64,000 nucleotides of DNA from Candidatus Marinacidobacterales bacterium (lineage in GTDB: Bacteria > Acidobacteriota > Vicinamibacteria > Marinacidobacterales > DATDRI01), in the NCBI GenBank assembly GCA_965219415.1, contig CBDCNP010000002.1:2080001-2144000 (forward strand). Reading direction: 5' to 3'. Both the position numbers and the translations under genes were made by a program. Below the pieces are notes generated by a model. That model ran no database searches. It was given only the letters and a program-made list of their open reading frames with translations, and was not told the DNA's origin. Every line of letters begins with the position of its first letter. Positions within the stretch are counted from its first letter, which is position 1. Of the stretch, positions 53,908-57,066 are shown one piece after another.

Positions 53908-54549
53908 ATGGGGAACACGCGCATAGTGAGAATCTGGGAAGATGGCCGTAACCTGACAACACACGGCCTAGCCGTCCACGGCCAGCATGAGATCAAGTTG
54001 GCGGTGGATGACGACCGCTTAATCAGTGAAGGCAAAGCGTTCCTTGAGACGATGATCGCATACGCGATCGACCATCGACGAATAGCTCCGGACGAGACTG
54101 TCGAGTACGGTTACTGGCTGACCAAGTTTATTGAGATCGCGCCGACCACTCTAGAGACTTGGGAGTATGACGCTCATGGAACACGCTTCGTCAGAGGCGC
54201 TACGCTAACGCTCAGGTACTGGAAGGAGCAACACGAACTGTGCGAAACAGCAGAATCACGATTCTCGCCGCCCCGCCCTGACAGACTCGCTGCGGTGGCC
54301 GCCGGTGTGTTTCAAGGTGAACCGGTTGATGCCGTTAGATACGTGCCAGAAGGCAACATGTCAGGATGGTGCTTTTTCACAGATCGGTATGACGGGAACA
54401 TTAAGTCACTGAATTATGAGCATCTGCATCATGTAACGGCGAATCGTCCCGACCTGGCGAAATACGTCGCACTAGAACCGGGTTTCTGCTTCGACCTCCA
54501 TGAACCCCAGAAAGTGTGGTTCGACGACAGCGCAGCCACCCAACAGTGA
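53908..54549 (+). CDS. Imm33/DUF2185-like immunity protein
   Basis: THGL..HGQHEI N-terminus; AVRY.P...SGWCFF, HLHHV..RPDLAKYVALEPG, VWFD. Confidence 0.72.
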   Translation: MGNTRIVRIWEDGRNLTTHGLAVHGQHEIKLAVDDDRLISEGKAFLETMIAYAIDHRRIAPDETVEYGYWLTKFIEIAPTTLETWEYDAHGTRFVRGATLTLRYWKEQHELCETAESRFSPPRPDRLAAVAAGVFQGEPVDAVRYVPEGNMSGWCFFTDRYDGNIKSLNYEHLHHVTANRPDLAKYVALEPGFCFDLHEPQKVWFDDSAATQQ

Positions 54550-54572
54550 GGGTCGCTCTCGAGAGAACGCCA

Positions 54573-54851
54573 CTAGCCGACCCTCCGTCGAGCGGCATCG
54601 ATCTTCTCCCGCATAAACGCTGCACCAAACACCTGCTCTGCGCTAAAACGATTGTGCGGGCCGCAGTGAAGCCGGAGAAACCTCTCGTCGTGGCTCCGAA
54701 ACAGAGCAAAGGCCCGCAGGTGCTCGATCTGGAGCCCGGTTCGGGAGCGACACCGCATCCCGTCCCGACCTCGGTATTCACATTGGTACCCCGCCCGTTC
54801 GTGGACGCGCTCGCGGGACCGCTGAGGGGATGTAACGAGACTTCGCGACGA
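54573..54851 (-). pseudogene. 3' part (HNH domain) of a split HNH-endonuclease gene
   Basis: KSRYIPSAV/RERVHERAGYQCEY...RC..LQIEHL...LHCGPHN. Confidence 0.75.
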
Positions 54852-54863
54852 CCTGACCCGAAA

Positions 54864-56252
54864 CTACCCTCCGGAAGCCTGGGGAGTGAGGGTGTATCCG
54901 AGAGCTTCGGCTGCCCTTTGTAAACCGTTGATGTGGTTTTGGCGAAAACGGTCTTCGAAGGCACGTTCGCCGATATCGATGTAATCGTGGCCATATTTGA
55001 GCATGCGGAAGACGAGCTGGGCGAGCTTGCGTGCTGTAGCAAAGACGGCGGTTTTGCCATCTTTACGGCGAGCAGTGCGGCGATAGTAAGCGCCTAGGGC
55101 GGTCTTGGAGCGGGAGAGAGATACAGCGGCCATACGTAAGGCACCGGCGATGCGATTGGAGCCGGCGCCGTTGCGGCGTTTGGAGAGTTGTTTACCGCCG
55201 GAGATAGGGCGACGTGGGGCGAGATGTAGCCATGAGACGAAGAATTTTTCGAAGGGGAAATCAGAGAGGTCGAATCCGATCTCGGTGAGGACAATGGCGG
55301 CGGTGGTTGGACTGATTCCGTCGATCCTGGTGAGGTCGCATCCAGCAAAACGCCACAGCTCGTTGCGCAGTTCGCTCTCGCCCCGATGCTGCATGTCGTA
55401 TCGTTTTTGCGGATTTGGATGAGCTGGCACGTTGTGGTGTCTGCGTTGTGGCGGCTGGAGTTCGATGAGCACTTCAAGGATACGCTGGTCGAACAGTTCG
55501 ACTTCGGCTTGTAGCGCATCGTAGAGACGCAGAGCCGATGCGAGGTTGAAAAGATGCTCGTCACGCCAAGTGCCGGTAAGATGCTCGGCGATCTCCTCTT
55601 CGCTCTTCTTGCAGCGTTGGTCACGAAATGCAGCCAGCTTTGACGGGTCACGCTCACCATCAACGATGGCGCGCACGATGAGCATGCCTGTGACGCCGGT
55701 AATGTCGGTCACTGCACGATGGACCTGAACGTTCATTTGGTCCAGAGATTTCTGTATCCATTGAATAGCTCGACTACACTGCTCGATGAGGCTGCAACGC
55801 TGTCGGTGAAGCGAGCGTAGGCGGCAGATCGACTCACCAGGACGAAACGAGCCTCGCAACAGACCACAGCTGTGTAACAGCTGCAGCCACTGACAGTCAT
55901 GCATATCGGTTTTACGTCCGGGGACGTTTTTTAACTGTCGAGCATTTACCAGCACCACTTCAAGACCCCGCGATTCAAGCAACTCATAAATCGGAATCCA
56001 ATAGACGTAGGTGCTTTCCATCGCAACCGATTCGACTCCTTGCTCGATGAGCCAATCCCCCATTTGATTCAAAGACGGTGTCGTTGGGGAAAACACCCGC
56101 ACGTTCACTTTACCGTCCGACAAGGCCGGCCCACATACCCAATGCTCACGACTGCCAATATCGATGCCTGCTACCTTCGACCTTGTCACCGGCAGCGATT
56201 GCGGCGACAGATTCTTCGACTTCCTACCACTCTTTTTCACGCGCTTGTGCAT
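54864..56252 (-). CDS. IS110 family recombinase (DEDD RuvC-like plus Tnp serine domain)
   Basis: GIDIG, MEST, KTDMHD, IDGIS, ISGGK, ATARKLA. Confidence 0.93.
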   Translation of the reverse strand: MHKRVKKSGRKSKNLSPQSLPVTRSKVAGIDIGSREHWVCGPALSDGKVNVRVFSPTTPSLNQMGDWLIEQGVESVAMESTYVYWIPIYELLESRGLEVVLVNARQLKNVPGRKTDMHDCQWLQLLHSCGLLRGSFRPGESICRLRSLHRQRCSLIEQCSRAIQWIQKSLDQMNVQVHRAVTDITGVTGMLIVRAIVDGERDPSKLAAFRDQRCKKSEEEIAEHLTGTWRDEHLFNLASALRLYDALQAEVELFDQRILEVLIELQPPQRRHHNVPAHPNPQKRYDMQHRGESELRNELWRFAGCDLTRIDGISPTTAAIVLTEIGFDLSDFPFEKFFVSWLHLAPRRPISGGKQLSKRRNGAGSNRIAGALRMAAVSLSRSKTALGAYYRRTARRKDGKTAVFATARKLAQLVFRMLKYGHDYIDIGERAFEDRFRQNHINGLQRAAEALGYTLTPQASGG

Positions 56253-56461
56253 CACTGACCTCACATGTATTTTTGTGAGTGAAGGCTCCGGCCCGAGATG
56301 GCGATTGTTAGGATTCTGACCCTGGGGAGTGCTTCCGTTCAAAGCCTCGCCAATGATAGGGAGCCGGCTCGGACCCAAGCTCGTCCTGGGGCATTAGTGC
56401 ACCAGTGGTGCTACGGGGTTTAGCTGCCGGGGCCTTCACCGACAACCCTTTTATCAGCTCA
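56253..56461 (-). ncRNA. Candidate IS110 bridge RNA region
   Basis: ~210 nt non-coding end with hairpins and short matches to the donor junction and left flank. Confidence 0.55.
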
Positions 56462-56478
56462 GGTAGTTTCTCGCCTGA

Positions 56479-57066
56479 TAGGGCCGGCCTCAGGAGGATA
56501 CTGGGCGACACTCGAGGGGCTGGGCGAGGATCGGAGCGGGGCGTCTCGGCCTCCGCCCGAGCTTGCACACTGGGTGGTAGGGTTAGAGCTGGTGGACACG
56601 GATTCTTGCGAATCGAGGGCGTGAAGACGGGCTTGGGCCGAAGGGCGACGAGGTGCTGCTCGGCCTCACGCTTAGTCATTCCGGCGCAGTCCGAAAGAAG
56701 TTTCTCCAGGTTGCTCTCGGTGAGGACGGGCGCGAGGAGACCTGCCACGGTAAGACTCATGCGGTTCCTGGCCAACGCTTCGAGTAGTTCAGGAAAACGT
56801 CTCGACACATTGGCCACCTGAATCCGTAGAGCGACTGAGCCCTCACTCAAGCGAAGCCGTCTCACACAGTAGTCGAAAAGATTCTTGTAGCCGCACTCGA
56901 GGTGGCCCTTTCTTCTCGACATCTCCGCGATGTGGGCGATAACGAGCGCCACGTTTCGTTTCTCGGCGCGGACCAGCTTTTCGGTAGAGTGGTCCAGATC
57001 TTCAGTCGAGAGGCTTTCGAGTCTCTCGAAATATGACTTCACGTTCTTGATCATGACTGTCGCCAC
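56479..57066 (-). pseudogene. 5' part (DUF222-like) of the split HNH-endonuclease gene
   Basis: LVIAHIAEM..R..HL..GYKNLFDYC..RLRLSEG...RI..A...RRFP, typical of this HNH family N-terminus. Confidence 0.78.

Follow-up and report, generated by a model that had tools for sequence, protein, structure and literature searches.

Introduction

The bridge RNAs and seekRNAs of insertion sequences are under development as programmable recombinases, and few architectures are characterised: IS621/IS622/ISCro4, ISEc21 and some IS1111 members. Two groups have been described. In the IS110 group, the RNA lies upstream of the enzyme gene, inverted repeats are absent or 2–3 base pairs (bp) long, the bottom-strand guide comes first, and the enzymes comprise 326–328 amino acids (aa; IS621) or 358 aa (ISEc21) (PMC11208160, PMC11187229). 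The IS1111 group is described with a downstream RNA, enzymes of 330–350 aa, subterminal repeats of 7–17 bp and the top-strand guide first (PMC11208160, PMC11187229). The latter order is that of the IS1111-family seekRNAs and is reversed in the IS110-type ISEc21; rare IS1111 members with an upstream region (ISMtsp17) and deep-branching exceptions are also mentioned (PMC11187229), as is multi-loop donor recognition in IS1111 (PMC11208160).

Here we report on an insertion sequence in a stretch of 64,000 nucleotides (nt) from Candidatus Marinacidobacterales bacterium (contig CBDCNP010000002.1, positions 2,080,001–2,144,000; hereafter the window, in which all positions are numbered). An earlier note, written from the letters of the window, had proposed an IS110 element with bridge-RNA guides upstream of its recombinase; every string it quoted was found on the minus strand where it had placed it. 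From sequence comparison across copies and relatives, we assign the locus, with a probability of about 85%, to a genuine multi-copy IS110-family bridge-RNA insertion sequence, present in the window as a decayed copy, whose mobility would be guided by the RNA with ends and guides reassigned as set out below.

Results and discussion

Identity and true ends of the element

The recombinase gene and its leader occupy the minus strand of the element (Table 1). The open reading frame encodes 462 aa, in agreement with the long protein (about 460 aa) predicted earlier. It matches the Pfam profiles DEDD_Tnp_IS110 (PF01548, 1.8e-21) and Transposase_20 (PF02371, 9.6e-14) and the NCBIfam model NF033542 ("IS110 family RNA-guided transposase", 248.5 bits against a cut-off of 140), and its C-terminal domain aligns with the solved IS621 and ISCro4 enzymes, the PRR..SG stretch included. 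The two domains that define the IS110 family, a DEDD RuvC-like N-terminal domain and a C-terminal Transposase_20 domain, are thus both present. The non-coding left end before the ATG measures 253 nt in canonical copies and 241 nt in the window copy, and 11 nt follow the stop codon; a long left end with upstream RNA and a short right end is a trait of the IS110 group.

The ends were assigned by comparing copies. A BLAST search of the host genome (G000; 8.05 Mb, 3 contigs) revealed five near-full and five or six defective copies with 98.8–100% identity. All nine left ends have TGAGGCCGGCCCTATCAGGCGA in common (in its longer form TGAGGCCGGCCCTATCAGGCGAGAAACTACC), preceded by unrelated sequence, and seven of them extend 12 nt further to CAAGGCCGCCGG, where the junction reads CC(G/A)GACGAG|CAAGGCCGCCGG, that is, CC(G/A)GACGAG|CAAGG in each of the seven canonical cases. 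All nine right ends terminate at GGGTAGTTTCGGGTCAG, including one variant, GGGTCAAG, and the flanks of the nine left and nine right ends are unrelated. The canonical full element, beginning CAAGGCCGCCGGC, therefore measures 1653 bp, and the window copy, without the first 12 nt (CAAGGCCGCCGG), 1641 bp; the genome BLAST match of the element starts at query position 8, which is window position 56493. The dinucleotide AG is the left neighbour of every canonical left end and the last 2 nt of every right end. Covariation across relatives identifies the same AG as crossover core, and an undivided target with a single AG was found at a paralogous empty site and in a paralog of another genome (G006). 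Site-specific insertion without target duplication and with the same core dinucleotide at both junctions, as in the IS110 family, is accordingly observed.

These ends differ from those of the earlier note, in which the element ran from CGAGAAACTACC to GGTAGTTTCGGG, TCAGG was shared flank or core, CCCUAUCA served as target guide for the left flank, and UCGCC as right-donor guide. The strings exist, and TCAGG does occur on both sides. However, CCCTATCAGG, taken there for flank, lies inside the element, as TGAGGCCGGCCCTATCAGGCGA is conserved in 9/9 left ends with unrelated sequence upstream, recurs with substitutions as a homologous stretch in relatives from other genomes, and has no empty site in the genome at up to 3 mismatches. 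The circle junction GGGTCAGGCGA and the "TCAGG" duplication are not supported by the multi-copy comparison either. The GGCGA spacer lacks conservation and does not covary with the UCGCC columns; TCGCC (56304–56300), the supposed right-donor guide, has no covarying partner. This version of the element is scarcely credible.

The halves of one further copy lie 7 kb from each other and in opposite orientation (L011, G000:C1:538473-539102, and L009, C1:546006-547042), with an overlap of 8 nt (element positions 618–625). Its right half adjoins another HNH-type flank, of which the first 35 nt are almost the same as in the window flank before the two diverge.

A conserved, structured leader RNA

A search of the host's order yielded relatives at 73–85% protein identity in three genomes and a match at E <= 1e-40 in 11 of 55 genomes. 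A scan of 185,579 species genomes provided 79 related loci at 28–94% identity, labelled in their records as Acidobacteriota, Gemmatimonadota, Rokuibacteriota, Myxococcota-type, Verrucomicrobiota and Kiritimatiellae metagenome-assembled genomes. The leader is conserved throughout the relatives.

RNAalifold applied to 34 distinct leaders returned six helices, in which 96.5% of cells are paired and 19 of 33 pairs changed on both sides. None of 500 shuffles reached any of five measures, and sliding the partners lowered pairing to 29–58% (<=57.9%). The G-U pairs (15/34 at one P2 pair) are compatible only with the sense strand, and the bridge RNA is presumably transcribed in the sense direction. The 149-nt core folds into a three-way junction, closed by P1 (56433–56426 with 56292–56285), with two arms that carry internal loops. 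The target arm consists of P2, a loop and P3, the donor arm of P4, P5, a loop and P6, and the respective left guides lie on the 3' sides of the two loops. A structured non-coding RNA with internal loops in the long non-coding end, as expected of bridge RNAs and seekRNAs, is thus in place. Of the stem GGUCCGAG/CUCGGGCC proposed earlier, the CCGA/UCGG part stands as helix P4, whereas GGGU pairs with an upstream ACCC instead. An Rfam search over 54500–56800 gave only a chance match (GRIK4 3' untranslated region (UTR), E 0.65), so that no curated family was found for the leader.

Just 3' of the core, a hairpin covers the GAGG ribosome-binding site (Table 1), and an analogous CCUC...GAGG hairpin is visible at this position in relatives. 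By sequestering GAGG it possibly links folding or processing of the RNA to translation of the recombinase.

Guide segments covary with target and donor

Two 7-nt segments of the leader, each terminated by AG, differ between lineages. When every RNA column was scanned against every position of the DNA ends, an unbiased comparison of 2835 tests, the ten positions of these two segments gave the top z-scores (3.6–7.1), all in the same sense. Same-sense covariation implies that both segments pair with the bottom strand and that the core is AG.

The left target guide, GGACGAG, precedes YUUGGGUCCGAG and equals the 7 nt immediately left of the canonical element (column z 5.7–7.1). Among 59 distinct, unselected loci, it matches the locus's own left flank exactly in 30 cases, with one mismatch in 19 and with two in 10, compared to 0.6% exact and 8.5% one-mismatch matches for foreign guides (n = 2410). 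It should be noted that the window copy is counted among the 59 and that its one-mismatch "hit" is spurious, being at the wrong distance. The left donor guide, GGGUCAG, follows CUCCCC and equals the 7 nt after GTTTC at the right end (column z 3.6–5.1). Family-wide it is identical to the element's own right end in 26/32 cases, with one mismatch in 2/32 and two in 4/32; foreign guides are exact in 5.6%. Recurrence of the terminal 7-mer in the leader would be expected about 0.015 times by chance. By our own arithmetic, an 8-nt direct repeat would arise about 0.4 times in ~240 nt and a given 5-mer about 0.2 times, so that neither the CCCTATCA repeat (see below) nor TCGCC is significant on its own.

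The right target guide, GUAGCACC, occupies the 5' side of the target loop and is complementary to the core G and the right flank. Of 34 loci, 28 had a right flank that could be used, and in these, complementarity was counted at 75 of 196 positions; permutation gave 46.1 ± 5.9 (0/5000 reach the observed value). Position RT+1 pairs with column 129 (z 4.1). The occupied sites in G000 begin GT(G/C/T), one of them reading GTGCGAC where GTGCTAC is predicted. This guide precedes the left target guide, so the top-strand guide lies 5' of the bottom-strand guide. Taken together, loop segments covary with the left target, the left donor and, more weakly, the right target.

Alignment of the homologues' non-coding ends thus bears out an IS110 element with a 5' guide RNA: a non-coding end of about 250 nt encodes a structured RNA whose loops covary with the element's own end and with its insertion flanks. 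GGGTCAG was correctly identified in the earlier note as the left-donor guide; TCGCC shows no such covariation, CCCTATCA corresponds to a box within the element and not to the flank, and the target guide GGACGAG had been missed. A left-flank "consensus" CTCGT, considered as target half-site with a GT core, was rejected in the course of this analysis since covariation among relatives places CCGGACGAG in the target and identifies AG as the core.

The leader might instead be a purely cis-regulatory 5' UTR, e.g. for translational control of the recombinase, with no role in guiding DNA. The hairpin over the ribosome-binding site and the Rfam result would fit such a role, and the guide assignments come from comparing sequences. 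A UTR does not, however, predict that three loop segments track the element's flanks and ends while the helices keep pairing, and in NCBIfam the protein falls among the RNA-guided IS110 transposases. We consider a regulatory leader of this kind very improbable.

Some elements carry target and donor guides that are the same or differ very little (both AAGUCAG in L102; GGGUCAG and CGGUCAG in G048), and head-to-tail junctions, with a right end directly abutting a left end, occur at L050, L061/L063, L088 and L102/L105. The combination suggests insertion beside resident copies, giving tandem arrays.

Inverted repeats and a same-sense box on the donor side

The subterminal inverted repeats of the earlier note, GAAACTACC on the left and GGTAGTTTC on the right, proved to be real and covarying. 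They measure 9 bp in G000 and 7–9 bp overall. Their GAAAC/GTTTC part is nearly invariant, position 6 matches in 27/29 loci and position 7 in 23/29, and positions 6–9 match in 61 of 116 cases compared to 33.9 ± 4.4 after permutation (0/5000 reach the observed value). The right repeat is directly followed by the 7-nt left donor, and the left repeat is preceded by a 4–6-nt spacer and an 8-nt box, denoted X (family consensus ATCATTCA, here CCCTATCA). X in turn comes after a terminal GC-rich hairpin and four nucleotides that vary. For most of the 34 relatives a hairpin is predicted at this position, and compensatory changes are seen among G000, G040, G048 and G043.

A copy of X in the same sense, X' (DNA CCCTATCA, RNA CCCUAUCA), lies on the 5' side of the donor loop. 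X and X' are identical in 12/34 loci and differ by one mismatch in 19/34, whereas foreign pairs are never exact and reach one mismatch in 0.6%. The variable X positions 1, 3 and 4 are mirrored in X' with z-scores of 5.4, 4.4 and 3.0, and a search throughout the 34 elements gave no antisense partner for X'. The repeat of CCCTATCA recorded in the earlier note is therefore a genuine, covarying pair (at most one mismatch in 31/34 loci against 0.6% of foreign pairs). Its partner is a box inside the element rather than the left flank, and the segment is not a target guide.

A 95-bp miniature element without an RNA gene still has hairpin, X, the two repeats and the terminal 7-mer; retention of X under these circumstances identifies it as a cis-acting DNA feature. 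The miniature, a derivative of a related element located outside the window (G000:C3:3985767-3985860, minus strand), reads left target, hairpin, X box, left repeat, ~24 nt, right repeat, GGGTCAG and then GT. About 700 bp from it there is a solo left end (G000:C3:3985035-3985107, minus strand), and a similar joint of left tip and right tip is present in contigs of public runs X1 and X3. Two defective copies, L007 (G000:C2:268027-269440) and L008 (G000:C1:1979172-1980586), have the same 232-bp internal deletion (window 56322–56091) between 6-nt direct repeats TCCCCA, by which the donor guide, three helices and 51 codons were removed. As this form is present at different canonical target sites, it seems to have moved in trans.

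On the comparisons made here, the same-sense X/X' pair is a robust, unexplained feature and appears as the main departure from IS621. In one model, the donor loop would read one DNA strand twice, at the last 7 nt of the right end and at the box 22–30 nt inside the left end beyond the hairpin, with the repeats bracketing this stretch; the donor would then be held as a folded or single-stranded junction with paired repeats and an extruded hairpin, rather than as an IS621-like unwound duplex. We put this model forward as speculative and, on balance, unlikely. Another tentative possibility is that X' does not pair with the X-box DNA and that their identity is kept for other reasons, e.g. because X belongs to a longer RNA isoform with a spare copy of this side of the loop, or because a third partner reads both. 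The same sense of X' and X misfits the opposite-strand rule described for IS621 (PMC11208160), the surroundings of the two boxes are also alike in G000 (GCCGGC..CCTATCA..GGCGAG), and, judged by eye and without statistics, the pair is not evident in a sister family with 47% protein identity or in a relative on Citrobacter plasmids (see below), all of which would suit this second explanation. Conversely, X' has no complementary partner in the 34 elements, X is kept in the miniature without RNA and so acts in cis as DNA, and mirrored variation at positions 1, 3 and 4 is hard to explain by protein recognition. A same-sense right-donor box was not found described in the literature, which is weak evidence of absence given that figures and supplements of the papers may show such layouts (e.g. 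Extended Data Fig. 10c of PMC11208160 or Supplementary Fig. 2 of PMC11187229).

Several observations weigh against the assignment of a bridge-RNA element as a whole. The scan returned no right donor guide complementary to the top strand beside the core: positions RD+2 to RD+6 have no partner, RD+1 alone tracks the base after the left target guide, in the same sense, and the opening nucleotides of the left end find no complement in any RNA column. X' and the left donor guide would both read one DNA strand, whereas the donor guides of IS621 are directed at opposite strands. The right end of the G040 element, GGGCAAG, differs from its donor guide, and the right target signal is weak in many single loci. 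The folding energy of the terminal hairpin is not below that of mononucleotide shuffles (median z -0.33; 3/34 below -2), so that position and compensatory changes among close relatives make up the whole case for it. Loci entered alignment A1 only if their left flank matched with no more than 1 mismatch, and the relatives are not independent, so that permutation p-values overstate the significance. In RNA library X19 of the public runs, contigs of ~93%-identical relatives (90–99%) cover parts of the element, among them the leader, and such libraries may contain DNA; in library X20 only a 155-nt piece of the recombinase gene is covered. Neither a circle junction, which the canonical ends predict to read ...GGTAGTTTCGGGTCAG|CAAGGCCGCC..., nor an empty site was found among the contigs of the public runs.

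Target site and history of the window copy

Canonical copies follow CC(G/A)GACGAG, the right half of the palindrome CTCGTCCGGACGAG. At up to one mismatch, this palindrome occurs 16 times in the genome, three times at element junctions and 13 times free. Free palindromes are followed by AT, AC and other dinucleotides, occupied sites by GT, and the form (AT)CTCGTCCGGACGAG(AT) is over-represented in G000 outside insertion sequences, mostly outside HNH genes. HNH genes as sole target were considered and rejected: the palindrome occurs in other genomic contexts, only 1 of the 13 free sites falls in a high-scoring segment pair of an HNH paralog, and HNH-family flanks were seen at just two insertion sites, those of the window copy and of L008. 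In the intact G006 paralog of the interrupted gene, the palindrome encodes PRPDE, followed by GTCGTC (VV), and reads CCTCGTCCGGACGAG|GTCGTC. The right junction in the window is exactly GGGTCAG|GTCGTCGCG, the canonical PRPDE|VV site, and L008 is a clean insertion, in opposite orientation, into the same motif of another HNH paralog.

The left side is different. Comparison with the intact paralog (tblastn) showed that the interrupted gene lacks residues ~179–253 (~75 codons) together with the first 12 nt of the element, and at the deletion joint GAGCCGGC of the gene and GAGGCCGGC of the element form an imperfect microhomology. The 3' part of the gene is frameshifted before the HNH motif, with tblastn matches q254–270 and q267–294 in two frames. 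A cut at AG that would restore the HNH reading frame was withdrawn as an explanation in view of the ~75 missing codons and the frameshift. The simplest history is that the element inserted canonically and that a single deletion then removed its left junction.

The truncated left end might alternatively stem from guided recombination at an internal target look-alike, CCGGCTGAG (7/9 identical to CCGGACGAG). A second truncated copy, L004, is broken at the same hairpin loop, beside an inverted remnant of a related element, and shared single-nucleotide polymorphisms indicate that it is not the closest relative of the window copy; a common breakpoint in two such copies, and off-target "half-match" recombination reported for IS621 (10.64898/2026.08.31.748434), would both accord with a guided event. 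Nevertheless, what is missing corresponds precisely to the HNH stretch from residue 178 up to the PRPDE target, the right junction matches the canonical PRPDE|VV site perfectly, and gene and element share the imperfect microhomology at the joint. All three are explained by a single deletion, and guided truncation is regarded as improbable.

The window copy has lost the left target, the core and one hairpin arm; its open reading frame and RNA gene are intact. It can probably supply enzyme and RNA in trans and would not be able to excise precisely. The paralogous family of the interrupted gene is very large, with 25 matches in G000 and 37 in G006, some of them broken. Its members have an N-terminal domain without Pfam match and a C-terminal HNH motif, and the family may itself be selfish or mobile.

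Table 1. Features of the insertion sequence and the interrupted gene, in window coordinates.
Feature	Position	Strand	Evidence
IS110-family element, this copy 1641 bp	54853..56493	-	genome BLAST, left-end comparison
Recombinase gene, 462 aa plus stop	54864..56252	-	Pfam, NCBIfam, C-terminal alignment to IS621
Putative bridge-RNA core, 149 nt, target-binding and donor-binding arms	56285..56433	-	RNAalifold on 34 relatives, covariation
Right target guide GUAGCACC	56407..56414	-	75/196 complementary; RT+1 z 4.1
Left target guide GGACGAG, ending in core AG	56380..56386	-	identity to canonical left flank, family-wide matches
X' CCCUAUCA, 5' side of donor loop, same sense as X box	56354..56361	-	family covariation
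Left donor guide GGGUCAG, ending in core AG, 3' side of donor loop	56316..56322	-	family-wide covariation
Left donor sequence GGGTCAG, core AG at 54854-54853, right end of element	54853..54859	-	all 9 G000 right ends and family-wide evidence
Right subterminal inverted repeat GGTAGTTTC, contains stop codon	54860..54868	-	covariation with left repeat
Left subterminal inverted repeat GAAACTACC	56462..56470	-	covariation with right repeat
X box CCCTATCA, subterminal left-end DNA box	56476..56483	-	family covariation, retained in 95-bp miniature
3' arm GCCGGC of terminal GC-rich hairpin, 5' arm deleted in this copy	56483..56488	-	compensatory changes among G000, G040, G048, G043
Hairpin CUCACA...UGUGAG over GAGG ribosome-binding site, just before ATG	56260..56279	-	minimum free energy fold
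5' part of interrupted multi-copy HNH-family gene, ~residues 1-178 of intact paralogs	56494..57066	-	tblastn with G006 paralog, q1-178
3' part of HNH-family gene, from VV of PRPDE|VV, frameshifted	54573..54852	-	tblastn, translation

Proposed mechanism

We propose that the left end (253 nt; 241 nt in this copy) would be transcribed in sense to give a core RNA of ~150 nt, the three-way junction with its two arms. The 462-aa DEDD/serine recombinase would exchange strands after AG in donor and target with no target duplication, a chemistry suggested by homology to IS621. The preferred target would be the right half of the palindrome CTCGTCC|GGACGAG, followed by GT. On the donor side, the 5' side of the loop, CCCUAUCA, matches the same-sense box beside the left inverted repeat, 22–30 nt inside the left end and beyond the GC-rich hairpin, where X' may play a part. 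One version of the palindrome encodes PRPDE|VV in the multi-copy HNH-family gene; the window copy would have entered such a gene canonically, and a later deletion took HNH residues ~179–253 and the element's first 12 nt.

Comparison with described systems

The element resembles IS621 (PMC11208160, PMC11208158) in its DEDD plus serine recombinase, in a long left end that contains the RNA and a short right end, in two internal loops, one for target and one for donor, and in the lack of target duplication. The left guides are identical to the top strand, including the 2-nt core, and the right target guide is complementary to the top strand, as in IS621. It differs from IS621 in its core (AG vs CT), in the placement of its two arms on a three-way junction, in the length of its inverted repeats (7–9 vs 2–3 bp) and in the size of its enzyme (462 vs 326–328 aa), of which only the C-terminal domain aligns (E 8e-10). 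Moreover, instead of a core-adjacent right donor guide it has the same-sense box 22–30 nt inside the left end.

With the ISEc21 seekRNA (PMC11187229) the element shares a guide RNA from the upstream non-coding region and a target in a conserved coding motif of a multi-copy, mobile-type gene; ISEc21, on the other hand, places its bottom-strand match 5' of the top-strand one, encodes an enzyme of 358 aa and lacks long inverted repeats. With the IS1111 elements ISEc11, ISPa11 and ISKpn4 (PMC11187229) it has in common subterminal repeats of at least 7 bp and a top-strand-complementary guide 5' of the bottom-strand-complementary one, whereas their RNA lies downstream and their enzymes comprise 330–350 aa. 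As in the "dual-match" element ISPpu10 (10.64898/2026.03.19.712850), the target lies beside or within a GC-rich sequence that forms a stem-loop, 5' of the crossover; unlike in ISPpu10, the left target is itself the 3' arm of the palindrome.

Measured against the two described groups, the element does not have the bottom-strand guide first or the absent or 2–3-bp repeats of the IS110 group (its order is the opposite, its repeats 7–9 bp), and it does show the 7–17-bp subterminal repeats and top-strand-first order of the IS1111 group, with neither the downstream RNA nor the ~330–350-aa transposase of the latter (RNA upstream, 462 aa). By these traits the layout is a hybrid: a 5' RNA as in IS110 and a 462-aa enzyme, combined with IS1111-like repeats and guide order. 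The hybrid layout postulated in the earlier note thus holds, and more strongly than it was put there, as the guide order is also that of the IS1111 seekRNAs. Apart from the core-adjacent right donor guide, the sequence evidence is consistent with a bridge-RNA/seekRNA insertion sequence by the defining tests of the family. Parts of this hybrid architecture may already be drawn in published figures or supplements of Siddiquee et al. or Durrant et al.

A sister IS110-family element in G000, with 47% protein identity, is present in 5 copies, including two tandem pairs (loci G000:C1:171661-172998, C1:722741-725687 and C3:4640886-4643832; a plasmid locus, L129, also belongs here). Its right end reads GGAGTTTC-TTAGGAA, its core is AA, and the leader segments AAAAAAA and UUAGGAA match target and donor, respectively. 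It sits in the A-rich slippery (frameshift) site of IS3-family orfA genes, and a 46%-identity relative on Citrobacter/Klebsiella plasmids uses the same kind of insertion site. Both have a right end of GTTTC plus 7 nt, 5' guides and the core AA; these like ends and guides indicate that the wider clade is common.

Conclusions

For genome annotation, the ends of a repeated element are corrected, and the window copy is recognised as a decayed element in a decayed gene. The locus and its 79 relatives, from at least six phyla-level groups, define a clade that mixes traits of two described groups and in which guides, core and cis elements are completely mapped from covariation. Should the same-strand box on the right-donor side prove real, hairpin, box and repeats would all belong to a minimal donor, and the box may bear on the debate over single-stranded intermediates (10.1101/2025.10.25.684509, 10.64898/2026.08.31.748434). 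Double reading of the same strand, if true, would mean that a bridge RNA can hold its donor in a distinct manner.

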